From: Patescibacteria group bacterium
Lineage (GTDB): Bacteria; Patescibacteriota; Minisyncoccia; Phycocordibacterales; Phycocordibacteraceae
Length of the DNA: 64,000 nucleotides
Reading direction: 5' to 3'
Assembly (NCBI GenBank): GCA_038064695.1
Contig: JBBTSO010000005.1
Span: forward strand, 106,070 to 170,069
The notes beneath the pieces are model-generated. The model saw only the letters and a list, made by a program, of their open reading frames with translations, was not told the DNA's origin and ran no database searches. The translations under genes and the position numbers were made by a program. Shown piece after piece: positions 11,466 through 46,393 of the stretch (position 1 is its first letter; each line of letters begins with the position of its first letter).

Positions 11466-11600
11466 TTAGACCCGGGCTCGTTTCTCACTTAAGCGAGGCG
11501 ATACTTGTTTTGAGGAGAGTAAGACTTGGGCTAGCGCCCTGGAGCGCTCTCCGAAAAATGAGTATCACCGAGCGACTCTCTACTTTCAAACGAGTGAAGA
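11466..11600. repeat. intergenic palindrome-rich repeat element (family with copies inside uvrB and mnmA)
   Basis: gagacttagacccgggctcg...gagagtaagacttgggctagcgccctggagcgctctc...tatcaccgagcgactctc. Compare uvrB 39925-39995: agactaagacttgggcaagcgccccggagcggtctc...atacccgagcgacc. Confidence 0.65.
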
Positions 11601-26540: not shown

Positions 26541-26613
26541 GGGCCCTTAGCTCATTTGGTAGAGCGCCTCATTTGCACTGAGGAGGCGGGGGGTTCGAAT
26601 CCTCTAGGGTCCA
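26541..26613 (+). tRNA. tRNA-Ala (anticodon UGC)
   Basis: Cloverleaf folded by hand: acceptor GGGCCCT/AGGGTCC (one G-U), D arm GCTC-ATTTGGTA-GAGC, anticodon stem CCTCA/TGAGG with loop TTTGCAC, T arm GGGGG-TTCGAAT-CCTCT, discriminator A. No encoded CCA. Confidence 0.9.
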
Positions 26614-26616
26614 CAA
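26599..26616 (+). repeat. 18-nt direct repeat copy 1 (= 3-prime end of tRNA-Ala, ATCCTCTAGGGTCCACAA)
   Basis: Identical 18-mer recurs at 26772-26789, 173 nt downstream. Confidence 0.8.
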
Positions 26617-26627
26617 CATAAAAATTG

Positions 26628-26652
26628 CCCAGCTCATGCTGGGTTATTTTTA
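26628..26652 (+). terminator. intrinsic terminator hairpin CCCAGC-tcat-GCTGGG + T-run after tRNA-Ala
   Basis: Read directly. Confidence 0.55.
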
Positions 26653-26705
26653 TGGCGGTTGAGTGTGGGAGGATTCGAAAACCGGAAGCGCGACGGCGCT
26701 GAGGT

Positions 26706-26744
26706 GGGGTCGCAAAAATTTTTAGCAAAAAATTATTAGTGACC
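26706..26744. repeat. GGGGTCGC-AT-rich-GTGACC unit, copy 1
   Basis: ggggtcgcaaaaatttttagcaaaaaattattagtgacc. Near-identical unit at 26887-26927 (181-nt period). Confidence 0.6.
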
Positions 26745-26771
26745 GATGCGTGCTGAGCGAAGCGATGACAC

Positions 26772-26789
26772 ATCCTCTAGGGTCCACAA
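26772..26789 (+). repeat. 18-nt direct repeat copy 2 (displaced duplicate of tRNA-Ala 3-prime end; att-like)
   Basis: ATCCTCTAGGGTCCACAA identical to 26599-26616. Followed by a second hairpin+T-run (ATCCCGC-ctg-GCGGGAT at 26801-26829). Confidence 0.8.
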
Positions 26790-26886
26790 AAGACAGAAAC
26801 ATCCCGCCTGCGCGGGATTTTCTGCTTTTGTGGAAGGCACAGGTATATTTTTCTTTGAACGAAGTGAGAGGGAAAAATACCGAGCC

Positions 26887-26927
26887 GGGGTCGCGGAAAA
26901 TTTCTGTCAAGAAATTTATTTGTGACC
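26887..26927. repeat. GGGGTCGC-AT-rich-GTGACC unit, copy 2
   Basis: ggggtcgcggaaaatttctgtcaagaaatttatttgtgacc. Preceded by ataccgagccgggg, which carries the CCGAGC core of the dispersed repeat family. Confidence 0.6.
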
Positions 26928-26941
26928 ACCTTTTGCTTGTT

Positions 26942-27100
26942 TTAAGCGTTATTTAACACGTGCTCAATAAACTCAGGCATTGAAACCCCTACTGCCGCGA
27001 GGGACTTCGGAAGAAGTGAATTTTCAGTGAGACCAGGGAGTGTATTCACTTCCAAAAAGTAAATACCTCGGGGGGATACAATAAAATCACTGCGCCCTCG
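26942..27100 (-). pseudogene. displaced, diverged duplicate of the ddl 3-prime end (last approx. 47 codons), preceded by an in-frame stop
   Basis: Own translation: ...RSDFIVSPRGIYFLEVNTLPGLTENSLLPKSLAAVGVSMPEFIEHVLNNA*. Intact ddl at 30281-30450 reads YSRSDFIVSPRGIYFLEVNTLPDLRDISLFSVALGSVGVNMSEFIEHILKLVYEK*. A 49-nt stretch (27043-27091) is identical to 30381-30429; the flanks are about 60 percent identical. Confidence 0.75.
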
Positions 27101-29155: not shown

Positions 29156-30291
29156 TCAATAAATTTTTCTACAATTGAAGAGTCATAGTCAAGCCTCTGT
29201 GCGTCAAATTCCACCTGTCGTTGTCGAGCATTTTCGATGAGTAAACTGAATTGTTGTGTATATGGTTCACCTGTAGCCTCCCAGAGATAGAAAGCGAGTG
29301 ACCCGGGGATGGAATTTACTTCGGTCAAATAAAGCACGCGGTCCTTAGTGTACATAAAGTCAATACGCACCATCTGACTCTGTCGAGTGGCTCGAAATAC
29401 CTTTTTGGCTGTTTCTTGAATTTCTGATCGCAAAGATTCAGAAATATCAGCAGGAAGCTCTCGATTGAGTGAAGCCATGCCTTGTTGTGCTGTTTTTTTG
29501 CCACCTTTTTCGTACTTTTCCGCAAAACTGAGAAATGCTTCTTTTGAAAGAGGGCGTTCAATCTCGCTTGTCTCAATAACTCCGTTATTTTCTCTCACTG
29601 AACAGTTGTATTCAACAAAGTCTGTAAGTAGGGTTTCAACCAGTATCTCATTATCTACATGCGAGGCTTTTAAAAGAGCTTTTTCAAGTTCAATTTTTGA
29701 GTGTGCGATATCTAGTCCAATTGACGACCCCAGATGAACTGGTTTAACGATGAGATCATCGCCTAGCGTACGACAACACTTTTCAACAATCTCCTGAGTG
29801 TTTTTACGAATTTCTACTGAGGTGAATGACAAACCTGGTACAGTTCTCACTCCTTCTTGAGAAGCTAAATTTTTAGTAATCTGTTTATTGAGTGCTATTA
29901 CGGAACCTTCGATTGAAGGAGATGAATGGGCAATGTTACATGTCTCAAGTAATCCTTGCACTTTTCCACCCTCGCCACCTCCTCCATGAAAAGCCAATAA
30001 TGCTGCATAAGGATAAATGCTTTTTGAAAAAAAACCATTAGTACGCACAAACCCTCCATGTTGGTTTTTTCCAAAAGAAACTGAGACACGTTTGTTTTTT
30101 AAAAATCCTTTTCGAGATTTTAACTTTGGCAAATAATAAAAATCGTTTTCTTTTGAAATATAAATAACGTGCGGAGTATAAACTTCTGTGTCTAAGGCTT
30201 CTAGAGCCTGCAATCCAGTCACGACAGACACCTCGTGTTCGGGTGAAGTTCCCCCAAACATAAGTAATATAGGTTTTCTTTCACTTTTCAT
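29149..30291 (-). CDS. ATP-grasp ligase of the D-Ala-D-Ala ligase family (second, divergent copy)
   Basis: Ddl-like N-terminus ILLMFGGTSPEHEVSVVTG and an ATP-grasp C-terminal half (YTKDRVLYLTEVNSIPG). 380 aa, highly diverged from the adjacent ddl. Confidence 0.7.
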   Translation of the reverse strand: MKSERKPILLMFGGTSPEHEVSVVTGLQALEALDTEVYTPHVIYISKENDFYYLPKLKSRKGFLKNKRVSVSFGKNQHGGFVRTNGFFSKSIYPYAALLAFHGGGGEGGKVQGLLETCNIAHSSPSIEGSVIALNKQITKNLASQEGVRTVPGLSFTSVEIRKNTQEIVEKCCRTLGDDLIVKPVHLGSSIGLDIAHSKIELEKALLKASHVDNEILVETLLTDFVEYNCSVRENNGVIETSEIERPLSKEAFLSFAEKYEKGGKKTAQQGMASLNRELPADISESLRSEIQETAKKVFRATRQSQMVRIDFMYTKDRVLYLTEVNSIPGSLAFYLWEATGEPYTQQFSLLIENARQRQVEFDAQRLDYDSSIVEKFIDQ

Positions 30292-31252
30292 ACACGAGTT
30301 TCAGAATGTGCTCAATAAATTCACTCATATTAACACCGACAGACCCTAATGCTACTGAAAATAGTGAAATGTCTCTTAGGTCGGGCAGAGTATTCACTTC
30401 CAAAAAGTAAATACCTCGGGGGGATACAATAAAATCACTACGCGAGTAATGTCTGAGCCCCAAAGCGCTATGCGATACCGCGGCGAGCGACTTTAACTCC
30501 GCACTTTCACGATCAGAAAACGACCCTGGACAACGCTCTATGGTGCGCGGGTTGTATTTTGTTTCGTAATCAAAAAACGTGCTTTGTGCTGGTAAGACAA
30601 TTTCAACGGGGGGCAAGCGGTAAACGGGCTCTCCACGAAGTCCCTCAACCACGCCCACCGTTGCTTCTTTTCCTGGAATGTATTCCTCTATCAAAATTTG
30701 AGGAGAAAACTGGAATGCGTTTTTTACTCCCGTTTGAAATTCAAAGAAGTTCTTTGCGAGTGTTACACCCACTGAAGAACCCGCACTCACCGGCTTAATA
30801 ACTGAGGGTTGCGGAAAATGCCGAAACGCATGTAGTATTTCACGATCAAGGGTGTCAGAAACTGAAAGCGTTATTCCGTAGGGAGTTTTTACCCCCATAC
30901 TCTCTAGCGTTTTTTTAGTAAGCACTTTATTCATCGCAACAGATGAAGCGTACGTGCGACTGCCGGTGTACGGAACACCTATGCGCTCTAGTACGCGCTG
31001 AACACCTCCGTCTTCCCCATACTCACCATGAAGCGCATTCCACACGACATCAACTCCCGTTAAACTTTTCTCAGGGGACGCAGGAACGCCACGAACAAAC
31101 CACTCACCCCCTTTATCAATAAAAATGTCTCGCGTTTTGTACTGCTCCGAAAATGAATGCGCTAACTGTTGCAGTACCGCGGCACCTGTTTTTAACGAAA
31201 CATCATGTTCCGCTCCCACTCCTCCGCGAATAACGGCGACAGTTTTTTGCAT
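30281..31252 (-). CDS. ddl: D-alanine--D-alanine ligase
   Basis: VAVIRGGVGAEHDVSLKTG, EEYIPGKE and SRSDFIVSPRGIYFLEVNTLPDL. 323 aa. Confidence 0.9.
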   Translation of the reverse strand: MQKTVAVIRGGVGAEHDVSLKTGAAVLQQLAHSFSEQYKTRDIFIDKGGEWFVRGVPASPEKSLTGVDVVWNALHGEYGEDGGVQRVLERIGVPYTGSRTYASSVAMNKVLTKKTLESMGVKTPYGITLSVSDTLDREILHAFRHFPQPSVIKPVSAGSSVGVTLAKNFFEFQTGVKNAFQFSPQILIEEYIPGKEATVGVVEGLRGEPVYRLPPVEIVLPAQSTFFDYETKYNPRTIERCPGSFSDRESAELKSLAAVSHSALGLRHYSRSDFIVSPRGIYFLEVNTLPDLRDISLFSVALGSVGVNMSEFIEHILKLVYEK

Positions 31253-35761: not shown

Positions 35762-38437
35762 CTATAAAACTTTCTTTACATATTCTGCTGTGTAACTTCC
35801 TTTGGCGCGGGCTACTTCCTCTGGTGTACCTTTTGCCACGATTTTCCCTCCACCCACTCCCCCGTCGGGCCCAATATCAATGAGATAATCAGACGATTTT
35901 ATCAAATCCATATTGTGTTCAATGGTCAAAACCGTGTTTCCTTTGTTTACAAGAGACTGCAAAATTTCTATAAGTTTTTTTACGTCTTCATAGTGAAGCC
36001 CGATAGTCGGTTCGTCCAAAATATAGATCGTTTTTTCCGTGTGCCTGCGATACAGTTCTGAAGAAATTTTTACACGCTGTGCTTCTCCACCTGAAAGTGT
36101 TGTAGCACTTTGCCCAAGTTCTAAATACCCAAGCCCAACATCATAGAGTGTTTGGAGCCGGTCCGCAATAGCGGGAATATCATTAAAAAACTCTAACGCT
36201 TCTTCAACGGTCATCGTGAGTACATCGTGGATATTTTTCTTTTTGTAGGTAACTTCTAAGGTTTCCTTCATAAACCGGTTTCCGTTACAAACGTCACAGG
36301 TAACGTACACGGTCGGTAAAAAGTGCATTTCAACCGCAACCGTTCCGTTTCCCTGACATGCTTCACATCGCCCTCCTTTTACGTTGAAAGAAAATCTTCC
36401 TCCCTTCCACCCACGTGCCTTCGCTTCAGACGTTGCGGCAAATAGATCGCGAATATGTGAAAACGCGCCGGTATAGGTTGCGGGGTTAGAGCGTGGTGTA
36501 CGCCCAATGGGACTCTGGTCAATCAACACCACGCGCGAAAGATATTCCGCGCCCGTAAAGGAGGTGCAGTTGTATATTTTTGCCGTTCGATAGTTACGCT
36601 CTAACTTTGCGCGCAAGTTTTTATAGAGAAGTTCATATACAAACGACGATTTCCCCGACCCCGAAACACCCGTGACTGAAATAAACTGCCCCAACGGAAC
36701 ATCAATATCCATATTTTTTATATTGAAAATGTTTCCTCCGCGCACTTTTAACTCTCCGAACTTCTGTGTGCGACGCTCCGCGGGAATTTCAATTTCCTCT
36801 TCTTTACGTAAATATGCGAGTGTCTTAGAATTGCTGTCATTCCTTTTTGCGGAAAGCAGTTTATCTAACCATCCTGCGACCACAATATCGCCTCCGTGCA
36901 CTCCCGCTCCCGGTCCAATATCTACTAAAAAATCCGAGGCGAAGATAGTATCCTCGTCGTGTTCAACTACAATAATAGTATTTCCTGCATCCCGAAGTGA
37001 CGTCAATGTTTGAATAAGGCGCGCGTTGTCTTTCTGATGAAGCCCAATCGTTGGCTCATCAAGCACGTAGAGCGCGCCCACCAATCCACTCCCCAACTGA
37101 CTTGCAAGCCTAATACGTTGTGCTTCTCCACCTGAAAGCGTGTTGGCGGTACGGTCAAGCGTCAAATACCCAATACCCACGTCAATCATAAACTGCAGGC
37201 GGTTTAAAATTTCCTTCACGACCGTATTTGAAATTTCCTGTTGTTTTTTGGTGAGCTTGAGACCTAAAACAAAATCCTGTGCGTCAACAATAGACATATG
37301 GGTTAAGTCCACGATGTTTTTCCCAAGTTCTTTTCCCTCGCCACCCAAGTACACACGGAGCGCTTCCGGACGAAGGCGTTTTCCGCTACACACTGGGCAC
37401 TCGTCGAGCGCAAAAAAACCCACGGTCCCAAGCCCGTTACATTCAGGACACGCGCCGTACGGAGAGTTGAATGAAAACAACCGCGGCTCAATTTCGGGAA
37501 ACGACGACCCATCTTCAGGGCAAATAAACTTGGCCGAAAGCAAACGTGGCTCGTCCACCCACTGGGTCAAAGACCCAGCGGAAGAAATGAACTGAGGGCT
37601 TTCAATTTTAATGAGCCCGCTTGATTCCCGAAGTGCTAGTTCTACTGCTTCGCTTAAACGTTCACTCGCGTCTGCTTTTGCAGTGTCAAACTCAGAGAGA
37701 AATATTTCATCCACCACCAAGTCAATGTCGTGGCGCTTGTTTTTATCAAGCTCTATCCGCTCGCGGAGCGAATATTCGCTTCCGTCTACCACCACTCGCT
37801 CAAATCCTTTTCCAAGGTAATCGTAAAGCATTTGGTAATACTCACCTTTTCTCCCCACCACCACTGGTGAGAGGATTTTTAACTTCGCGTTTGAATATGC
37901 TACCCCTTTGACGGTTTTTGATGTTTTTTTTAAATCAATGTCCGCAATGGACTTTAAAATAATTTTGAGAATTTCCTCTTTAGAAAGTTTTTCAATGGGC
38001 ACGTCGTGGTGCAAACAGTACGGCTGGCCCACACGCGCGTAAAGAATGCGCAGATAGTCATAAATTTCAGTAATAGTTGCGACCGTTGAACGAGGGTTAT
38101 TACTTCTGGACTTCTGATCAATAGCAATGGCGGGCGAGAGACCGGTAATTTCCTCCACGTCCGGCTTCTGCATTTGGTTCAAAAACTGCCTGGCGTACGC
38201 GGAAAGTGACTCCACGTAGCGCCGTTGTCCCTCGGCAAAAATAGTATCAAAGGCAAGTGACGATTTTCCGGATCCTGAAAGCCCCGTAAACACCACCATT
38301 TTGTTACGTGGTATTTCCAACGTAATATTTTTCAAATTGTGCGTCTTGGCACCCCGTATAACGATTTTCTCCGTCCCTAAATCAGGGGTTTCAATGACAT
38401 CTTTGACTGGTTTTTTAGAAGACATACACGTAAACAC
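35762..38437 (-). CDS. uvrA: excinuclease ABC subunit A
   Basis: Two ABC modules with Walker A GLSGSGKSS and GVSGSGKSS, zinc-finger Cys pairs, signature LSGGEAQR twice. Confidence 0.95.
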   Translation of the reverse strand: MFTCMSSKKPVKDVIETPDLGTEKIVIRGAKTHNLKNITLEIPRNKMVVFTGLSGSGKSSLAFDTIFAEGQRRYVESLSAYARQFLNQMQKPDVEEITGLSPAIAIDQKSRSNNPRSTVATITEIYDYLRILYARVGQPYCLHHDVPIEKLSKEEILKIILKSIADIDLKKTSKTVKGVAYSNAKLKILSPVVVGRKGEYYQMLYDYLGKGFERVVVDGSEYSLRERIELDKNKRHDIDLVVDEIFLSEFDTAKADASERLSEAVELALRESSGLIKIESPQFISSAGSLTQWVDEPRLLSAKFICPEDGSSFPEIEPRLFSFNSPYGACPECNGLGTVGFFALDECPVCSGKRLRPEALRVYLGGEGKELGKNIVDLTHMSIVDAQDFVLGLKLTKKQQEISNTVVKEILNRLQFMIDVGIGYLTLDRTANTLSGGEAQRIRLASQLGSGLVGALYVLDEPTIGLHQKDNARLIQTLTSLRDAGNTIIVVEHDEDTIFASDFLVDIGPGAGVHGGDIVVAGWLDKLLSAKRNDSNSKTLAYLRKEEEIEIPAERRTQKFGELKVRGGNIFNIKNMDIDVPLGQFISVTGVSGSGKSSFVYELLYKNLRAKLERNYRTAKIYNCTSFTGAEYLSRVVLIDQSPIGRTPRSNPATYTGAFSHIRDLFAATSEAKARGWKGGRFSFNVKGGRCEACQGNGTVAVEMHFLPTVYVTCDVCNGNRFMKETLEVTYKKKNIHDVLTMTVEEALEFFNDIPAIADRLQTLYDVGLGYLELGQSATTLSGGEAQRVKISSELYRRHTEKTIYILDEPTIGLHYEDVKKLIEILQSLVNKGNTVLTIEHNMDLIKSSDYLIDIGPDGGVGGGKIVAKGTPEEVARAKGSYTAEYVKKVL

Positions 38438-38486
38438 ACCCGCTTCGGACGATGTATGTACCTATCGTACCATAAAGACGTTTAAG

Positions 38487-38678
38487 TTACGGGGATTTTA
38501 CGAGACGAGAGGCAATTTTTGACATAATGAAGAAAAAGGCAGCCCAAATAATAACTTGACTACCAATCAAACCTACCTGTTCAACGGTACTCAAAGAATT
38601 CCACGCCTCAACGATAGGTGTCACATCTTCACCTTCTTTTGGAGAAGCTTTTTCAAGCAATGGACCTAGTATACTCAT
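38487..38678 (-). CDS. small membrane protein, hypothetical
   Basis: 63 aa with C-terminal TM helix VIIWAAFFFIMSKI. Confidence 0.35.
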   Translation of the reverse strand: MSILGPLLEKASPKEGEDVTPIVEAWNSLSTVEQVGLIGSQVIIWAAFFFIMSKIASRLVKSP

Positions 38679-38711
38679 GAAACCTATTTTATACTAGTTT
38701 TTTAAATATGT

Positions 38712-38770
38712 CAATCTTCCTGCAAATACCTCATTTTAGGCCTTATTTTGCGGGCTGGTTCGATAGGTAG
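38712..38770 (-). repeat. displaced duplicate of the uvrB 3-prime end (last 16 codons + stop), approx. 395 nt downstream of the intact copy
   Basis: RC translates ...PARKIRPKMRYLQED*, the same peptide as the uvrB C-terminus. 54/58 nt identical to 39111-39168, then abrupt divergence. Confidence 0.8.
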
Positions 38771-38938
38771 ATAAATAATTACCTTATATGGTAATTATTT
38801 TTATATATGAAAACAGTAAAAACCCGCCTGAGGCGAGTTTTTGTTTACATTTTTCACTGAGAAAGACACTGATCATTCTCCAGAGATGTGTTTCAGTGAT
38901 GCACTTAGCCAAAAATCCACCATACGGCGGATTTAATA

Positions 38939-39076
38939 CTAACGAATTTTGTTTTCGTTAGGGAAATAATCAAGGTGATTTTCTGCATTCCAATAACCCA
39001 ATACAAAACCAGCAACGACACCGGCTATAGCAGTTAGAGACATTGAGATGATAAGATCGCGTGTATTTTGATTCAT
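38939..39076 (-). CDS. tiny (45 aa) putative membrane peptide inside the segment between the uvrB 3-prime-end copies
   Basis: Own translation: MNQNTRDLIISMSLTAIAGVVAGFVLGYWNAENHLDYFPNENKIR. Below the ORF-track cutoff. Confidence 0.25.
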   Translation of the reverse strand: MNQNTRDLIISMSLTAIAGVVAGFVLGYWNAENHLDYFPNENKIR

Positions 39077-39110
39077 ACAACTTGCATAGTATCATTCAAA
39101 GTGAAATTTG

Positions 39111-41276
39111 TCAATCCTCCTGCAAATATCTCATTTTGGGCCTTATTTTACGGGCTGGTTTAACGGGTTTTGGTAACTTTTCTTCAAGTTTAATAATTTC
39201 GTCCCGCAAAAGTGCGGCGGTTTCAAAGTCCAGCACTTTCACCACTTCTTCCATTTCTGCCTTTTTATCTTTTATGAGCTGTTTTAGGGCCTTGGGGCTG
39301 TCCGCAATAGCCATATCAACCATCAACGCCATAGCGGTCGCTCTATCACGGTCGGCTTTGAGCGAATCAGTAATGTCGTGGATAGTTTTCTTAATAGTTG
39401 CAGGGGTAATGCCATGCTTTTTATTGTATGCCAACTGCACTTCGCGACGGCGGTTTGTTTCTGCAATTGCTTTTGTAAGAGACCCGGTCATTTCGTCTGC
39501 ATACAAAATCACTCGCCCATTTACATTTCGTGCTGCACGCCCAATGGTTTGAATGAGAGATGTTTCGCTTCGTAAAAATCCTTCTTTATCGGCGTCCAAA
39601 ATTCCCACCAACTCCACCTCGGGCAAGTCCAACCCTTCACGGAGCAAGTTCACTCCGACCAAGCAGTCAAATTTTCCACGCCTAAACTCGGTCAAAATAG
39701 TAATACGTTCTATTGTTTTTATATCTGAGTGAATGTATTCCGCTTTCACTCCCTTCTCTTTCAAAAACTCCGCCAAATCTTCCGCCATTTTCTTCGTGAG
39801 TGTGGTCGTGAGTACGCGCCCTCCGCCCGCCACCACTTTTTCAGTCTCTTCAATAAAATCCGCCACTTGCCCCTTATACTGTTCCTCAGTGTTTTCTGCC
39901 TTTTTAGCGAGGGTGTCCCTCGCAGAGACTAAGACTTGGGCAAGCGCCCCGGAGCGGTCTCTAAGAGGGATACCCGAGCGACCTGTGACGGGGCGAAGAA
40001 TAATTTCCGGATCAATGAGCCCTGTGGGGCGAATAATTTGCTCCACCACCTGTGTTGAATGTTCAAACTCATACGCGCTCGGTGTTGCGGACGTGTAAAT
40101 ACGCTGTCCGAGTCGCGCGTCTATTTCGTCAAATTTTAATGGGCGGTTGTCAGCGGCCGATGGTAGACGGAATCCGAAGTCTATCAATGTTTTTTTACGC
40201 GACTGATCCCCCGCATACATTCCTCCCAACTGCGGAATGGTTACGTGTGACTCGTCAATAATAGTGAGAAAGTCTGGCGTGCCATCTTTCTTATGAGGAA
40301 AATATGAAAGCAAAGTGTACGGTGGCTCGCCGGGTTTTCGGCGGTCAAAGTGGCGCGAGTAGTTTTCAATGCCGTTGGTGTAGCCAATTTCGCGAATAAG
40401 CGCCAAGTCATACTTGGTGCGGCGCTTCAAGCGCTCCGCCTCCAACAACTTCCCTTCTGCTTCAAATTTTTTAAGTTGCGATGCTAACTCCGCTTCAATA
40501 TCAACGAGTGCCACCTCTCGTTCTGACTCTGGTGTCACGTAGTGTTTTGCAGGGAAAAGGAAAAAAGTATAAGGTTCGTCAATAATTGACCGCGTTACTC
40601 CGTTGATGCGCGAAATTCTATCAATTTTTGTACCGTCCGGCACAACGCGATAAATAGTGGTTTCATTCACCGGCATCACTTCTATTTGGTTCCCTACCGC
40701 ACGAAAGGTGCCGGGAGTTAAATCAGCGTTCGTGCGCTCAAACTGCAACGCAATCAAAAAGCGCATAAATTCTGCACGTTCAAATGCGTCTCCGACAGAA
40801 ATTTTCCGATGCACCTTTTCATACTCGTCTGGTGAACCAAGTCCGTAAATACACGACACTGACGCCACGATAATGACGTCGGAGCGCGTCAACAGCGCTT
40901 GCGTTGAGGCGTGGCGCAAACGATCAATTTCTGCGTTAATCTGCGCTTCCTTCTCTATATAGGTGTCCGAGTGCGGCACGTACGCTTCCGGTTGGTAGTA
41001 GTCGTAATAAGAGACGAAGTAGTGAACGGCATTTTCAGGGAAAAACTCCCGATACTCTTGGGTTAACTGTGCTGCGAGTGTCTTGTTGTGGGCAATAACG
41101 AGAGTTGGTTTTTGCACCTGTTGAATCACATTTGCTGCCGTAAAGGTCTTTCCAGACCCCGTCACGCCCAGAAGGGTTTGGTGTGTATCACCACGTTTAA
41201 TACCCTTTACCAACGCCTCTATCGCCTTTGGTTGATCCCCTGCGGGTTCATACTCTGAATGGAGTTTAAAATTCAC
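39111..41276 (-). CDS. uvrB: excinuclease ABC subunit B, carrying an approx. 37-aa in-frame repeat-element insertion
   Basis: Walker A GVTGSGKTFT, DESH, helicase motifs, beta-hairpin, C-terminal UvrB/UvrC interaction domain. The insertion VTGRSGIPLRDRSGALAQVLVSARDTLAKKAENTEEQY sits between the conserved ...ILRPV and KGQV...RVLTTTLTKKMAEDL. Confidence 0.95.
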   Translation of the reverse strand: MNFKLHSEYEPAGDQPKAIEALVKGIKRGDTHQTLLGVTGSGKTFTAANVIQQVQKPTLVIAHNKTLAAQLTQEYREFFPENAVHYFVSYYDYYQPEAYVPHSDTYIEKEAQINAEIDRLRHASTQALLTRSDVIIVASVSCIYGLGSPDEYEKVHRKISVGDAFERAEFMRFLIALQFERTNADLTPGTFRAVGNQIEVMPVNETTIYRVVPDGTKIDRISRINGVTRSIIDEPYTFFLFPAKHYVTPESEREVALVDIEAELASQLKKFEAEGKLLEAERLKRRTKYDLALIREIGYTNGIENYSRHFDRRKPGEPPYTLLSYFPHKKDGTPDFLTIIDESHVTIPQLGGMYAGDQSRKKTLIDFGFRLPSAADNRPLKFDEIDARLGQRIYTSATPSAYEFEHSTQVVEQIIRPTGLIDPEIILRPVTGRSGIPLRDRSGALAQVLVSARDTLAKKAENTEEQYKGQVADFIEETEKVVAGGGRVLTTTLTKKMAEDLAEFLKEKGVKAEYIHSDIKTIERITILTEFRRGKFDCLVGVNLLREGLDLPEVELVGILDADKEGFLRSETSLIQTIGRAARNVNGRVILYADEMTGSLTKAIAETNRRREVQLAYNKKHGITPATIKKTIHDITDSLKADRDRATAMALMVDMAIADSPKALKQLIKDKKAEMEEVVKVLDFETAALLRDEIIKLEEKLPKPVKPARKIRPKMRYLQED
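39925..39995. repeat. palindrome-rich repeat element inserted in frame in uvrB
   Basis: agactaagacttgggcaagcgccccggagcggtctctaagagggatacccgagcgacctgtgacgggg. Same family as 11466-11600. Confidence 0.7.
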
Positions 41277-41307: not shown

Positions 41308-41499
41308 TCATTTTCTTGAGCTAGATTTAGTTAGAAAACTAAGAGCGTATAAAACCGCAATAAAAGAAAAACCGATGCCGAGACCCTGAGACATCTCATG
41401 AGAAATTGATCCATCTCTAGAATCTATATAAAGCCCCCACATAGATAAGAGCACTGATAGCCCGGTCCCAACATGAAGGCCTGTTCTATTTTCAATCAT
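41308..41499 (-). CDS. small 2-TM membrane protein, hypothetical
   Basis: 63 aa. N-terminus MIENRTGLHVG resembles the tiny ORF at 38939-39076 (MNQNTRDLII). Confidence 0.35.
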   Translation of the reverse strand: MIENRTGLHVGTGLSVLLSMWGLYIDSRDGSISHEMSQGLGIGFSFIAVLYALSFLTKSSSRK

Positions 41500-41573
41500 A
41501 AATCTATTCTTACGTATTTATAAATTTTTGTCAAATTGTCCTATATTTTCTCAAAAACTCCTCGAAACACTTT

Positions 41574-42293
41574 TTACACTTTCCCCAAAATCATAATTTT
41601 TTGCCAAATGGAGCGTCGTAAGTTGGTGGTTAAATCTTCTATATCATTAACCGCGTCCACCACCACGGGGTCATGGACATGTTCAGCGTAAAGCGCCGCA
41701 AGTTTTCCAAGGAGCGAAAGGAGTTCGGAACAGTAATCTAAGTATCGATCAAGTTGAAATGATGACAGCCCATGAATTTGAACGTGTTCTGTTCTTAAAC
41801 TTGGATTTTGAGTGGTGACAGGGTCTTTGGTGAGCTGGTGCATATCCACCACGTGAGCATACGAGCGAAGTTCATGAAGATAATTCAAAATCCGACCTCG
41901 TTTGACGCGCTGTTCAATGCCCATTAAAAACCACAGCCCTGCGCCAAAGACAATTAAAAGGTTGATACCCGCGTCTAACCCTTGGGTGAGAGTAACAATG
42001 TCAGAACTTCCTTGCCAATTTTCTATTCCAACTTGAACCAACAGAAGCGAAAGTCCTATCAAAGAAAAAATAACAACGGCTATGAGAGTGCGGAGGAGCA
42101 TCGCCGGTTTTTGCATTCGTTCAGCACGCGCAACCGTTTCCTTCGCGGTAACCAGAATACTTCCCGAGAGCGCATAAAGTCCTGAGTCAGGAAAACGCGC
42201 ATGGATGCGTTTGGAAAGTCGCTCTAGCGTACTGATGACTTTTTCACTCTCCAATGTGCTAAACGGCAAAAGTGTACTCTTTTTTAGATTCAT
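41574..42293 (-). CDS. hypothetical membrane protein
   Basis: Start set at MNLKKS so the ATG abuts the tgt stop. Two central TM helices. Confidence 0.45.
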   Translation of the reverse strand: MNLKKSTLLPFSTLESEKVISTLERLSKRIHARFPDSGLYALSGSILVTAKETVARAERMQKPAMLLRTLIAVVIFSLIGLSLLLVQVGIENWQGSSDIVTLTQGLDAGINLLIVFGAGLWFLMGIEQRVKRGRILNYLHELRSYAHVVDMHQLTKDPVTTQNPSLRTEHVQIHGLSSFQLDRYLDYCSELLSLLGKLAALYAEHVHDPVVVDAVNDIEDLTTNLRRSIWQKIMILGKV

Positions 42294-42294
42294 A

Positions 42295-43533
42295 CTAAAC
42301 CTTTCTACTAGTATATCGCGCCAAAAACTCCTCTCGAAACGCTTCAAACCGATCCTCTAAAATTGATTGACGGATATTTTTCATCAAAGAAATAATGAAA
42401 TAGAGATTGTGTAAGGATGCCAGTGTTGCCCCAAGCATTTCTTTCGCTCTAAAGAGGTGCGCGAGGTACGCTTTGGAAAAGTGTTCTGATACGTACCCCC
42501 CTGTTTCCTCATCCACGAGAGAAAAATCGCGAATATATTCCTCGCGAAGTAAATTCATCTTTCCTCGTGCTGTGTAAATGGTAGCGCTTCGCGCAAGACG
42601 GGTTGGCTGTACACAGTCAAACATATCAATACCGTGGGCAACCCCCTCAAATAAATCTTCTGGCTCTCCAATGCCAAGTAAATGCCTGGGTTTATCAGAT
42701 GGAAGTGGGTTAATAGCCGACCTAAGCGCTTCTCCTAAGTCCGCTTTTGAAAACGACCCTCCAATGCCGTAGCCATCAAAATCCATCGCCCCCAACACCT
42801 CCGCGCTCCACTGTCTCAAATCCGGATACCTCCCTCCCTGCACCACACCAAAAATTCCCTGCTTCTTCCTTGCTTCAAGATTGTTTTGGTGTGTTGCGAG
42901 CGAACGCTCTGCCCATCGGTGAGTGCGTTCACCCGCTTCACGTTGGTACGCATAGTCAGCCGTGGGCGACGTACACTCGTCAAACGCAAAGAAAATATCG
43001 GCGCCAAGCGCGTGTTGAATTTCCACCGAACGCTCTGGCGTAAACCGATGAAGCGAACCATCAAGGTGCGACGTAAACGAAACTCCTTCGTCATCTATAA
43101 TGGCGAGTTTCCCGTGCTGAGAAAGTACACTCTCATCGAAAAAGCTTGGCATCACACTCTCGCCCTCTTGTTTGAATCCCGGGATTCCAACAAATTTGTT
43201 TGAACCATTTTCAAACCCCGCGCCAAGTGAGAATACTTGAAACCCTCCAGAGTCGGTGACGAGCGGTCCCTGGCAATTCATAAAAGAATGAAGTCCACCC
43301 GCCTCCTTCACGACATCCTCACCTGGCTGTAAAAACAAATGGTACGTGTTGGCGAGTGCCACTTCGGCCCCCACCAGTTCTTTTAAATCTTTTGGCGTGA
43401 CAGCCTTCACCGTACCTTTCGTCCCTACCGTGCAAAACGCCGGTGTGGCAAAACTTCCATGCGGAGTAGAAACGACTCCTGCACGCGCTCCACCTTCTAG
43501 GGTTTTCTCAATTGAGAAACGAATTGCACGCAT
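42295..43533 (-). CDS. tgt: queuine tRNA-ribosyltransferase homologue (zinc-site cysteines replaced)
   Basis: VTDSGGFQVFSL and GIDMFDCVQPTR catalytic regions are conserved. The canonical C-x-C-x2-C zinc site is here LVDEETGGYVSEHFSKAYLAHL. There is also an approx. 30-aa insertion after GGFQVFSLG. Confidence 0.85.
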   Translation of the reverse strand: MRAIRFSIEKTLEGGARAGVVSTPHGSFATPAFCTVGTKGTVKAVTPKDLKELVGAEVALANTYHLFLQPGEDVVKEAGGLHSFMNCQGPLVTDSGGFQVFSLGAGFENGSNKFVGIPGFKQEGESVMPSFFDESVLSQHGKLAIIDDEGVSFTSHLDGSLHRFTPERSVEIQHALGADIFFAFDECTSPTADYAYQREAGERTHRWAERSLATHQNNLEARKKQGIFGVVQGGRYPDLRQWSAEVLGAMDFDGYGIGGSFSKADLGEALRSAINPLPSDKPRHLLGIGEPEDLFEGVAHGIDMFDCVQPTRLARSATIYTARGKMNLLREEYIRDFSLVDEETGGYVSEHFSKAYLAHLFRAKEMLGATLASLHNLYFIISLMKNIRQSILEDRFEAFREEFLARYTSRKV

Positions 43534-43550: not shown

Positions 43551-43606
43551 CAAAAGTCCTTACGGAAGGGCTTGAAGCGTACATCTCCCTGGAGTAAGGA
43601 CTTTTG
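43551..43606. repeat. hairpin repeat element with conserved loop (copy A), doubles as bidirectional terminator
   Basis: CAAAAGTCCTTAC-ggaagggcttgaagcgtacatctccctggag-GTAAGGACTTTTG. 13-bp perfect arms with T-runs on both sides. Compare 46340-46393. Confidence 0.7.
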
Positions 43607-46078: not shown

Positions 46079-46318
46079 TTATTTCATAATGTGCCGAGCG
46101 GCAACCATACCTAAAACAGCAGGCACTAACCCAGAAATAATTCGTAAACCAACATCAATAAGTGGGTTATCGGTAAGTTCGTGTTTATTTTCTAAATAAT
46201 CTGCAGAGAGGAATCCTGCACCGAGAAGACTAAGTCCCACAATTTCTGTAGTCTTAATTCTACTTTTAATTTTATCCATACTTTGTTTAAAGTAGTATAT
46301 TAAAAAAATAAATGTCAA
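46079..46318 (-). CDS. small 2-TM membrane protein, hypothetical
   Basis: 79 aa. Preceded on its own strand by hairpin AAAGTAGT/ACTACTTT. Confidence 0.35.
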   Translation of the reverse strand: MTFIFLIYYFKQSMDKIKSRIKTTEIVGLSLLGAGFLSADYLENKHELTDNPLIDVGLRIISGLVPAVLGMVAARHIMK

Positions 46319-46339: not shown

Positions 46340-46393
46340 AAAAGACTTTTCGAAAGGGCTTGTAGCGTACATCCCGCTTGCGAAAAGCCTTTG
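46340..46393. repeat. hairpin repeat element with conserved loop (copy B), downstream of nrdB
   Basis: AAAAGACTTTTCG-aaagggcttgtagcgtacatcccgcttg-CGAAAAGCCTTTG. The loop shares GAAGGGCTTG-AGCGTACATC with copy A. Confidence 0.7.

Follow-up and report, generated by a model that had tools for sequence, protein, structure and literature searches.

How does a gene that is itself complete come to have a second copy of its 3′ end a few hundred nucleotides downstream? The question is raised by uvrB in a stretch of 64,000 nucleotides from a groundwater Patescibacteria group bacterium, the whole of which is called the window here. A 57-nt direct repeat on the minus strand takes in the last 16 uvrB codons, the stop codon and, overlapping the stop, a TTGACA −35 box. 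Copy 1, the resident terminus (encoding ...PARKIRPKMRYLQED and the stop, plus 7 nt), lies at 39104–39160 with its TTGACA at 39114–39109, and copy 2, the displaced terminus, lies at 38704–38760 with its TTGACA at 38714–38709. The copies are identical at 52 of 57 positions, their starts are 400 nt apart, and 343 nt (38761–39103) lie between them. A preliminary description had rightly reported the duplicate, which it placed at 38712–38770 with four mismatches, a spacing of 395 nt and a 335-nt insert; those figures are replaced by the ones given here and by five mismatches, four in the 51 coding nucleotides and one after the stop. The similarity extends 7 nt beyond the stop codon, or 10 nt if counted from the first base of TGA; on the gene-proximal side it breaks off sharply, as already described, at AACCAGCC. 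Self-BLASTN gives the repeat an E-value of 1.3e-15, and its local alignment score is 47, compared with a mean of 10.6 and a maximum of 15 for shuffled sequences. The displaced copy lies outside every ORF of at least 30 aa, while uvrB is full length and has a C-terminus that fits the clade motif. A uvrB ending in ED before the stop was considered as a marker of occupied sites and rejected, since YLDE is a common ending in the clade and so is YLDED.

The uvrB gene (39111–41276, minus strand; 721 aa), delimited from the ORF list and by reading the sequence, is leaderless behind an extended −10 box (TGCTATAGT); the assignment of Pfam UvrB domains rests on precomputed hits for relatives and for the uvrB of the source contig. 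The uvrA product (35762–38425, minus strand) is 887 aa long from the ATG at 38425, with a GTG at 38437 opening the frame. In the window, the spacer between the two genes measures 673–685 nt and contains two orphan leaderless genes for small membrane proteins, each downstream of one repeat copy. ORF45 (38939–39076, minus strand), which had been noticed before, encodes a 45-aa single-pass membrane peptide (MNQNTRDLIISMSLTAIAGVVAGFVLGYWNAENHLDYFPNENKIR), and ORF63 (38487–38678, minus strand) a small membrane protein of 63 aa. A consensus scan predicts a promoter for each. P1 (39086–39114, minus strand; 10/12 matches) consists of TTGACA, a 17-nt spacer and TACTAT with a TG upstream, and P2 (38686–38714, minus strand; 11/12 matches) of TTGACA, a 17-nt spacer and TAAAAT. 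The ATG of ORF45 lies 9 nt past the −10 box of P1 and that of ORF63 7 nt past the −10 box of P2, so that both mRNAs, if these putative promoters are active, would be leaderless.

Three hairpins had been described between the copies, and all three are real, at −7.5, −11.7 and −14.6 kcal/mol. The first is an 8-bp hairpin across the ORF45 stop codon (CUAACGAA/UUCGUUAG; 38939–38961, minus strand; z=−7.0). The second, terminator-like hairpin 1 (AAAUCCGCC/GGUGGAUUU; 38908–38934, stem 38913–38934, minus strand), is followed by a U-run and was found by folding, being missing from the pattern scan. The third is predicted terminator 2 (AAAAACUCGCCUCAGGCGGGUUUUU; 38808–38842, hairpin 38818–38842, minus strand), which lies between two A/U runs and may work bidirectionally. 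A fourth, absent from the earlier account, is an AT-rich palindrome with a perfect stem at the distal end of the insert (38773–38800, no strand assigned). A consensus promoter after each repeat copy and terminators after ORF45 are an arrangement that fits a recombination scar.

Next to the displaced terminus, with a 5-nt overlap, the uvrA promoter and the start of its leader recur in inverted orientation with 18/21 matches (TGGTTCGATAGGTAGATAAAT; 38756–38776, plus strand). The 14-mer of this motif occurs just twice in the 64 kb, but inverted matches of at least 18/21 arise in 11.5% of region-wide shuffles, and the motif is no more than suggestive. The uvrA promoter itself (extended −10, TGGTACGAT) and its hairpin leader occupy 38426–38472 on the minus strand, are conserved in relatives and form the right edge of the inserted block. 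ORF45 was also considered as part of a type I toxin–antitoxin pair. The plus strand at 38766–38850 folds as a hairpin plus terminator, its sole promoter candidate, TTCGAT, lacks the key A at −10 position 2, and in Rfam the best sRNA match reaches 34 bits, below its gathering score of 54. In the Rfam scan of the window, tRNA-Ala alone reaches its gathering threshold.

The origin of the second terminus can be read from the differences between the copies. All coding differences are synonymous, with 4 over 8.7 synonymous sites and 0 over 36.3 non-synonymous sites (Fisher p=8e-4), a pattern that would have a probability of ~0.011 if just one copy were under constraint. Synonymous divergence between the copies is 0.46, approaching the 0.61–0.75 that separates this genome from its closest available relatives. 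Because all four coding differences are synonymous, both copies must have evolved as working uvrB ends, in genes of different lineages, and duplication in place followed by decay is disfavored. On this codon evidence the repeat copy is foreign or allelic in origin. The earlier idea that gene ends are regenerated is borne out in one sense, namely that one copy arrived as a ready-made, working uvrB terminus. The same comparison tells an imported gene end from an in-situ duplicate and is usable on any displaced 3′ fragment.

Compared with close relatives, the DNA between the copies is an insertion. In the four closest relatives (L081, L083, L084/85 and L086), with UvrB 87–95% identical, the uvrB–uvrA spacer is 51–56 nt. 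Other relatives (L082, L089 and L180) have different, unrelated cargo at the same site. Within the window's spacer, the displaced terminus and the uvrA promoter are the sole matches to relatives. Both window copies and L082 have in common the stop-overlapping TTGACA and diverge within a few nucleotides after it, and in the empty-site relatives a −35-like TTGGAC lies in the uvrB 3′ end, upstream of the uvrA −10 box. A displaced uvrB end occurs in 0 of ~20 other expanded uvrB–uvrA spacers (L082, L089, L180/181 and 16 genome loci), and a search for a third, decayed uvrB end distal to ORF63 gave no significant match. ORF63 and a 70-aa ORF at the same position in L082 have an 18-residue hydrophobic match (E=0.03 in a single comparison), which does not amount to homology. 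The window's upstream 63-aa ORF has no match to a 62-aa ORF at the same place in L084.

The uvrB repeat is present in five independent assemblies of the same population, all of them occupied, and no excised or empty allele was found among them. A variant in one sample has no differences over 3.4 kb upstream but 5 within the 40 nt that begin at the ORF63 start codon, which points to recombination at the population level that broke at P2.

Site-specific integration classically leaves a direct repeat that includes the 3′ end of its target gene, and the same mark is found in the decayed, integrase-less remnants known as CIMEs (cis-mobilizable elements; PMC5704250). Our preferred reading, to which we give a probability of roughly 40%, is that 38704–38760 is a displaced, attR-like uvrB terminus and that the locus may be the att-type scar of an integrase-less, CIME-like insert of ~400 bp. 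The incoming segment would have recombined into the uvrB 3′ end of a recipient genome in which ORF63 already lay between uvrB and uvrA. It would have carried the synonymously diverged last 16 uvrB codons with the stop and the overlapping −35 box, followed by a −10 box, the leaderless 45-codon membrane-peptide gene and two terminators. In the simplest topology, the donor would be circular or excised, and one conservative crossover with the chromosome inside their common 57-nt terminus would directly yield the order terminus, cargo 1, terminus, cargo 2; this type of crossover is the one we infer. The circle junction would read ...CTACCTATCG, repeat, CACTTTGAATG. With 91% identity and identical runs of at most 11 nt, RecA-type recombination is unlikely, and a site-specific recombinase is therefore favored. 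Such an enzyme may have acted in trans or have belonged to a larger element since reduced by deletion, and the remnant would be integrase-less and att-flanked.

The present arrangement would leave both neighbors functional. The uvrB C-terminus is intact, and copy 1 would provide the −35 box of P1 for ORF45, the transcript of which would end at the terminators. Copy 2 would provide the −35 box of P2, so that ORF63 may still be expressed despite the terminators upstream, and uvrA, which has its own promoter, may also be kept expressed through P2. A streamlined, highly syntenic Patescibacteria genome would thus gain lineage-specific small genes between repair genes with neither damaged, the incoming DNA supplying a replacement gene end and the displaced end being reused as a promoter half.

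Several features are common to the locus and to att-flanked integrative elements and CIMEs (PMC5704250): the repeat takes in the uvrB 3′ end and leaves the gene whole, the site is empty in relatives, and, as in tandem accretion, a second cargo lies behind an internal repeat. As in CIMEs, the repeats are kept and the 343 nt hold just ORF45 and hairpins, with the repeats as putative att sites. The locus is unlike such elements in that its cargo is only 343 nt, the repeat is 91% identical and no second occurrence was found, and no related parent element was found for ORF45 or the insert DNA, which are without homologs. Its target is uvrB in a Patescibacteria genome, and its repeat would also serve as one half, the −35 box, of a predicted promoter. 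Unlike in att-flanked islands, no match to a tyrosine or serine recombinase was found among 40 window ORFs. We know of no parent element or recombinase with this uvrB specificity, and a literature search on Patescibacteria integrases and att sites returned nothing directly relevant. Acquired DNA at a conserved single-copy gene is also seen in the islands of streamlined genomes, which are kilobases long, whereas the insert here is below one kilobase and no recombinase was found. Integron cassettes offer a further parallel, being small single-ORF units in tandem at a fixed site, integrase-less, orphan and strain-variable. The units here differ from them in having their own predicted promoter and terminators and a boundary formed by the end of a housekeeping gene; the window has no match to the integrase family, neither an IntI gene nor an attC-type site was identified, and the hairpins are terminator-like.

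The cargo itself is unique in the collections searched. Searches of ORF45 and ORF63 against 5.8 billion proteins returned self matches only, and a full phmmer scan of ORF45 against 1.8 billion representatives returned itself and two weak matches to long repetitive proteins. Neither ORF has a Pfam domain. DNA of the insert and repeat has no match in phage genomes or viral contigs, and a pattern scan of one JGI metagenome collection, which evidently lacks the source contigs too, found nothing. The insert has no other copy in the window by self-BLASTN. ORF45 and ORF63 give no BLASTP alignment with each other and were rejected as relatives, and the resemblance proposed between the N-terminus of ORF45 and the small gene at 41308–41499 fails as well, with no BLASTP alignment at E≤100. 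Pfam searches of ORF45, ORF63 and 38 other ORFs of the 64-kb window found no recombinase, integrase or transposase domain. Terminal inverted repeats such as those of an IS element or MITE were not found at the ends of the 343-nt insert, and the flanking repeat is 57 nt and imperfect, as opposed to a short (2–15 bp) target-site duplication. The mobility of the insert is thus hypothetical, its cargo being just 343 nt with no relative in protein, phage or viral collections. Also counting against an att-type scar are the imperfect core of the repeat (5/57 mismatches), the lack of a distal third uvrB-end copy at ORF63, the missing recombinase domain in the 40 window ORFs and the ~20 expanded spacers without a displaced end.

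The strongest alternative, which we consider possible though rather unlikely, is allelic capture: an illegitimate, homology-facilitated recombination with the uvrB–uvrA locus of a related strain bearing another small-gene cassette. The exchange would have been homologous on one side, in uvrB or uvrA, with an illegitimate join on the other, where the repeat has a short microhomology, (A)ACCA, at its left edge. Two alternative cassettes would now stand in tandem, separated by 57 nt from the uvrB terminus of one of the strains, a one-off accident involving no dedicated element or recombinase. Two orthologous alleles are expected to differ synonymously only, as the copies do. The homology continues beyond the stop through the −35 box, with three alleles having TTGACA in common before they diverge, and since this similarity runs past the stop into a promoter of the same layout, a donor at the orthologous locus is easier to envisage than a dedicated element. 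The hot spot lies between two highly conserved genes usable as homology arms, the cargo of relatives is unrelated, the repeat occurs nowhere else, and no recombinase was found. The one-sample ORF63 variant points the same way, and the inverted uvrA-promoter motif at the junction hints at a messy rearrangement.

Against allelic capture, its topology is contrived, because it requires an illegitimate joint upstream of where the homologous anchor ends. Natural transformation with homology-facilitated illegitimate recombination offers a one-sided anchor in a conserved gene and a microhomology join with no mobile machinery, whereas the event here left a 57-nt duplication. To our knowledge, the described events replace or delete recipient DNA and do not duplicate it, nor is the process known from Patescibacteria. 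Statistical support is weak for the microhomology as well as for the inverted motif. Sliding-window identities demonstrate no recombination tract in the window's uvrA or uvrB; uvrA codons 150–430 form a mosaic segment, but the outlier there is the relative L081 and not the window. Such an accident would have to have happened three times within 64 kb (ddl, tRNA-Ala and uvrB), which is a lot, and the sharp identity block at ddl followed by ~55% divergence misfits a source at the orthologous locus.

Tandem duplication of the uvrB terminus and the DNA downstream of it by slippage or unequal crossing-over, with later divergence, would account for copies that lie head to tail 400 nt apart and for two units that both consist of a −35 box, a 17-nt spacer, a −10 box and a leaderless small membrane ORF. 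It is nevertheless very improbable, since a non-coding copy should have changed at all codon positions, and at 9% repeat divergence the remainders of the units should still align, which they do at neither the DNA nor the protein level. Still less probable is that the duplicate is a conserved regulatory device, an attenuator or duplicated promoter controlling the uvrB–uvrA operon of the clade. Each copy does contain a consensus −35 box that is followed, after 17 nt, by a −10 box, and the empty-site relatives have their own −35-like motif at the uvrB 3′ end, but the duplication is missing from every relative examined, including the four with short spacers, and no Rfam family reaches threshold. 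According to the preliminary description, its reading would be contradicted by a conserved element that keeps its spacing and lacks empty-site alleles, and such an element is not what the four relatives show. A secondary role of copy 2 as a promoter half is compatible with an att-type scar. An assembly artefact, a collapsed or chimeric repeat, can be dismissed even though the source is a metagenome-assembled genome, because contigs from other samples or assemblies (L092, L094, L095 and L099) span both copies at 99.9–100% identity and the copies, differing at five positions, are not confusable at assembly k-mer lengths.

The locus was originally taken as one of a class of small elements that home to gene 3′ ends, on the strength of displaced duplicates at ddl and tRNA-Ala as well. 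Both of those duplicates exist, but the idea is only partly supported: the DNA at uvrB is an insertion relative to relatives, yet nothing points to a class of homing elements, since its cargo is unique, the three inserts of the window (155 nt, 343 nt and 3.3 kb) have no common sequence and none has a recombinase, and the ~20 expanded spacers are without a displaced uvrB end. The structure at uvrB is of a known kind, a familiar type of recombination scar that lies at a variable hot spot, and is as yet no evidence for a new class of mobile element. We regard it as improbable that a family of integrase-less micro-cassettes, each with a promoter half, a leaderless membrane-protein gene and terminators, is inserted by a trans-acting recombinase at the 3′ ends of uvrB, ddl and tRNA-Ala. 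If it were so, every cassette would arrive with a substitute gene end that doubles as its own −35 box, the result would be an integron-like cassette system with no integron platform, and it would explain the many orphan small ORFs between syntenic housekeeping genes in the lineage.

The ddl and tRNA-Ala cases appear to be two further att-like scars, sharp blocks of identity being what site-specific recombination leaves. At tRNA-Ala, an 18/18 identical 3′ end stands at the head of two 173-nt units that have diverged but can still be aligned. The ddl block spans 60 nt at 95% identity, has synonymous differences only, giving the same answer as the test at uvrB, and is followed by an intact alternative C-terminus that is ~55% identical. 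The best metagenome match to ddl, sought for an empty site in close relatives, is just 52% identical. The 9-mer GAGGTATTT is common to the ddl and uvrB repeats.

In the ORF list, uvrB occupies 39111-41276 on the minus strand, with uvrA downstream of it on the same strand (35762-38425, or 38437 if counted from an upstream GTG). A stretch of 57 nt around the uvrB stop codon (copy 1, 39104-39160) is present again at 38704-38760 (copy 2), with 52/57 positions identical and a start-to-start spacing of 400 nt. This is the second strongest repeat in the 64-kb self-comparison (E=1.3e-15), and the two copies align locally with a score of 47, compared with a mean of 10.6 and a maximum of 15 for shuffled sequence. 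The repeat comprises 16 codons (PARKIRPKMRYLQED) and their TGA stop, extends 7 bases further, and includes a perfect TTGACA that overlaps the stop; upstream of AACCAGCC, the alignment finds the copies unrelated. The preliminary description had recognized this duplicate, and the repeat itself stands, with coordinates and counts corrected by up to about 10 nt. The window sequence is contained in contig CAYHKB010000001.1, which belongs to a MAG of Patescibacteria recovered from Hainich groundwater. Both copies are spanned, with 99.9-100% identity, by contigs of four further samples or assemblies; the arrangement is therefore real and fixed in the source population.

The 685-nt spacer between uvrB and uvrA contains two orphan small membrane-protein genes on the minus strand, ORF45 (38939-39076), which encodes one transmembrane helix, and ORF63 (38487-38678, from the ORF list). 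Each lies behind a predicted minus-strand promoter with its -35 box inside one copy of the repeat. The -10 box of P1, TACTAT with TG upstream, lies 17 nt after the -35 box of copy 1 (consensus score 10/12), and that of P2, TAAAAT, lies 17 nt after that of copy 2 (11/12). The ATG follows the -10 box by 9 nt in ORF45 and by 7 nt in ORF63, a spacing that implies leaderless mRNAs. The uvrB start, read directly from the sequence, is arranged alike (TGCTATAGT, 6 nt, GTG), so this is the normal gene design of the genome and no cassette peculiarity. No third uvrB-end copy was found distal to ORF63.

Four hairpins follow ORF45: one overlapping its stop (minus strand; folding), a terminator-like stem at 38913-38934 (minus; folding), a stronger terminator at 38818-38842 (minus; folding and pattern scan), and an AT-rich palindrome at 38773-38800 (folding and self-comparison). 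An Rfam scan returned no family at threshold in the spacer. An extended -10 box (TGGTACGAT) and a hairpin leader, both conserved in relatives, stand directly before uvrA. The promoter together with the start of the leader recurs as an inverted 18/21 copy at 38756-38776, exactly on the left edge of copy 2, and the 14-mer TGGTWCGATAGGTA is found in the 64 kb only at the uvrA promoter and at this inverted copy; an inverted match as good as 18/21 has a probability of about 0.1 in a region-wide shuffle test and is thus unremarkable.

The uvrB gene of the window is intact, and its product ends in the clade-typical ...YL-x-E-D motif. Many Patescibacteria UvrB proteins (P0001-P0095) carry a basic C-terminal tail with a conserved ...(K/R)xYLDE(D) ending that is missing from more distant homologues. 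In the predicted present-day arrangement, copy 1 would provide the -35 box for ORF45, whose transcript the terminators would end, copy 2 would provide that for ORF63, and uvrA would keep its own conserved promoter. A terminator-bearing unit could in this way sit after uvrB without silencing downstream genes, to which the event may owe its survival.

The closest UvrB proteins among 5.8 billion sequences are 95-80% identical, and the contigs encoding them keep the gene order nrdB, cysS, FKBP, tgt, uvrB, uvrA, uvrC. On relatives' contigs L081 (95% UvrB identity), L083, L084/85, and L086, only 51-56 nt separate the uvrB stop from the uvrA start, with the uvrA promoter almost directly behind the stop; these sites are empty. 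The spacer of L082 (92%) is 386 nt long and contains an unrelated leaderless ORF of 70 aa, likewise behind a promoter with a stop-overlapping TTGACA; L089 (82%) has a 1380-nt spacer with three ORFs, and L180-182 (78%) have a 386-aa esterase-like gene there. Spacers in more distant Parcubacteria range from about 55 nt to 3.3 kb. Within the window's spacer, only copy 2 and the uvrA promoter have matches in relatives. Since spacer length and cargo differ among relatives, the junction is a lineage-variable insertion hot spot, with two small-gene units there in the window.

The coding parts of the two copies differ at four positions, all third-position and synonymous (CGT/CGC, CCC/CCT, AGA/AGG, GAG/GAA), which amounts to 4 differences in 8.7 synonymous sites against none in 36.3 non-synonymous sites (Fisher p=8e-4). 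With the resident copy alone constrained, a synonymous-only pattern would have a probability of about 0.011. Copy 2 lies within no ORF of at least 30 aa and so is under no coding selection now; given this and the synonymous-only differences, it must have diverged while it still formed the end of a working uvrB gene. At 0.46, synonymous divergence between the copies comes close to the 0.61-0.75 that separate this genome from its nearest available relatives; one of the two copies was therefore imported from another lineage. The import test is clean. The locus, at a clear hot spot, is a real recombination scar with good support, of a kind already known but in an unusual host.

The observed order would arise in one step from a single crossover in the shared terminus, with a chromosome carrying the terminus followed by ORF63 as one partner and a circular or excised donor carrying the terminus followed by the ORF45 unit as the other. 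RecA-type recombination between the copies is improbable because they mismatch at 9% and share no identical run longer than 11 nt, which favours a site-specific recombinase, acting in trans or lost along with the remainder of a larger element. The remnant fits the published definition of a CIME, in which att sites are kept, integration genes are lost, and tandem accretion tends to occur at the target gene's end (PMC5704250). This att-type reading is preferred tentatively, at a probability of about 0.42. The ddl and tRNA-Ala cases described below support a systematic process of this kind. Several points speak against the favoured mechanism. No recombinase domains were found in 40 window ORFs scanned. 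The cargo is tiny and unique, with no relative in protein, phage, and viral searches. Other occupied uvrB sites show no repeat, a displaced uvrB end being found in 0 of about 20 other expanded uvrB-uvrA spacers.

The similarity also continues past the stop codon and through the -35 box, which is more in keeping with an origin at a related strain's orthologous locus. The main rival, somewhat less likely than the att-type reading, is allelic capture through one homologous and one illegitimate joint. It gains modest support from a variant in one sample, contig L093 (ERZ1292625), which equals the window over 3.4 kb (uvrB, both copies, and ORF45) and then shows 5 differences in 40 nt (window equivalent 38631-38680), 2 of them synonymous and 2 conservative, beginning 1 nt upstream of the ORF63 ATG, where this contig also comes to its end. 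This pattern suggests population-level recombination with a breakpoint at P2. However, no recombination tract was found in the window's own uvrB or uvrA, since the mosaic signal comes from L081. In uvrB and the uvrA 3' half, no relative is closer than L081, yet at uvrA alignment codons about 150-430 it is the most distant from all the others, which indicates a recombinant tract there in L081. An integrase-less cassette system is improbable. Duplication in situ followed by decay was rejected, given the synonymous-only differences and the lack of alignment beyond the 57 nt.

A displaced 3' fragment of ddl (26930-27095, minus strand, intact reading frame) corresponds to the resident 30278-30443. 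Over its first 60 nt it matches the resident gene at 57/60 positions, with 3/3 differences synonymous, and the remainder is about 55% identical. The 3.3-kb insert contains a second D-Ala-D-Ala ligase (a ddl paralogue), a Mur ligase-like gene, and an alpha/beta hydrolase, and no recombinase was found in it. Downstream of tRNA-Ala (26541-26614; repeat region 26599-26960), the 18-nt tRNA 3' end has an exact second copy (18/18) 173 nt away. These ends head two diverged, alignable 173-nt units (score 95.5 versus a null of 56 +/- 6), both containing a terminator hairpin along with a GGGGTCGC...GTGACC motif, and the locus resembles a tandem of two related mini-inserts at the tRNA end. Within the 64 kb, the 9-mer GAGGTATTT is present only three times (expected 0.4), on the minus strand at 27061, 30409, and 38724. 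Two of these sites are the ddl repeat copies and the third is copy 2 of uvrB; chance, with p roughly estimated at about 0.02, or a common recombination motif could account for this sharing.

The preliminary description had proposed small elements that home to gene 3' ends and regenerate them. Insertion at the uvrB end, a gene end supplied ready-made, and two similar scars nearby are borne out. The evidence does not establish a class of small homing elements: no sequence is common to the three inserts, none of them holds a recombinase, no second copy of any was found anywhere, and the signature is that of classical site-specific integration and its remnants. The proposed resemblance of ORF45 to the small gene upstream of uvrB was not found.

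A palindrome-bearing element of about 90 nt also occurs twice on the minus strand, inside uvrB (39893-39983) and in an intergenic region (11481-11577), with an alignment score of 66 (shuffle mean 18, maximum 29) and a 27-mer core restricted to these two places in the window. The uvrB copy is in frame and encodes RSGIPLRDRSGALAQVLVSARDTLAKKAEN, flanked by RPVTG and YKGQVADF, behaviour similar to that of Rickettsia palindromic elements. The insertion is shared by the window, L081, L083, L086, and L087, with a longer form in L083 and L086; L082, L084, and L089 lack it. Two minus-strand intergenic hairpins with the common loop sequence GGGATGTACGCTNCAAGCCC (43552-43587 and 46340-46375), the one behind the FKBP gene and the other behind nrdB, may represent a small repeated structured element or a terminator family.

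Further spacers between syntenic housekeeping genes are enlarged by orphan ORFs, at 41308-42347 and about 46081-46281. The tgt-uvrB spacer contains a 257-aa ORF and a 63-aa membrane ORF; it measures about 0-270 nt in relatives, and that of L084 has an unrelated 62-aa ORF. In the nrdB-cysS spacer, a TTGACA-17-TATACT promoter precedes a leaderless ORF for a membrane protein of about 66 aa.
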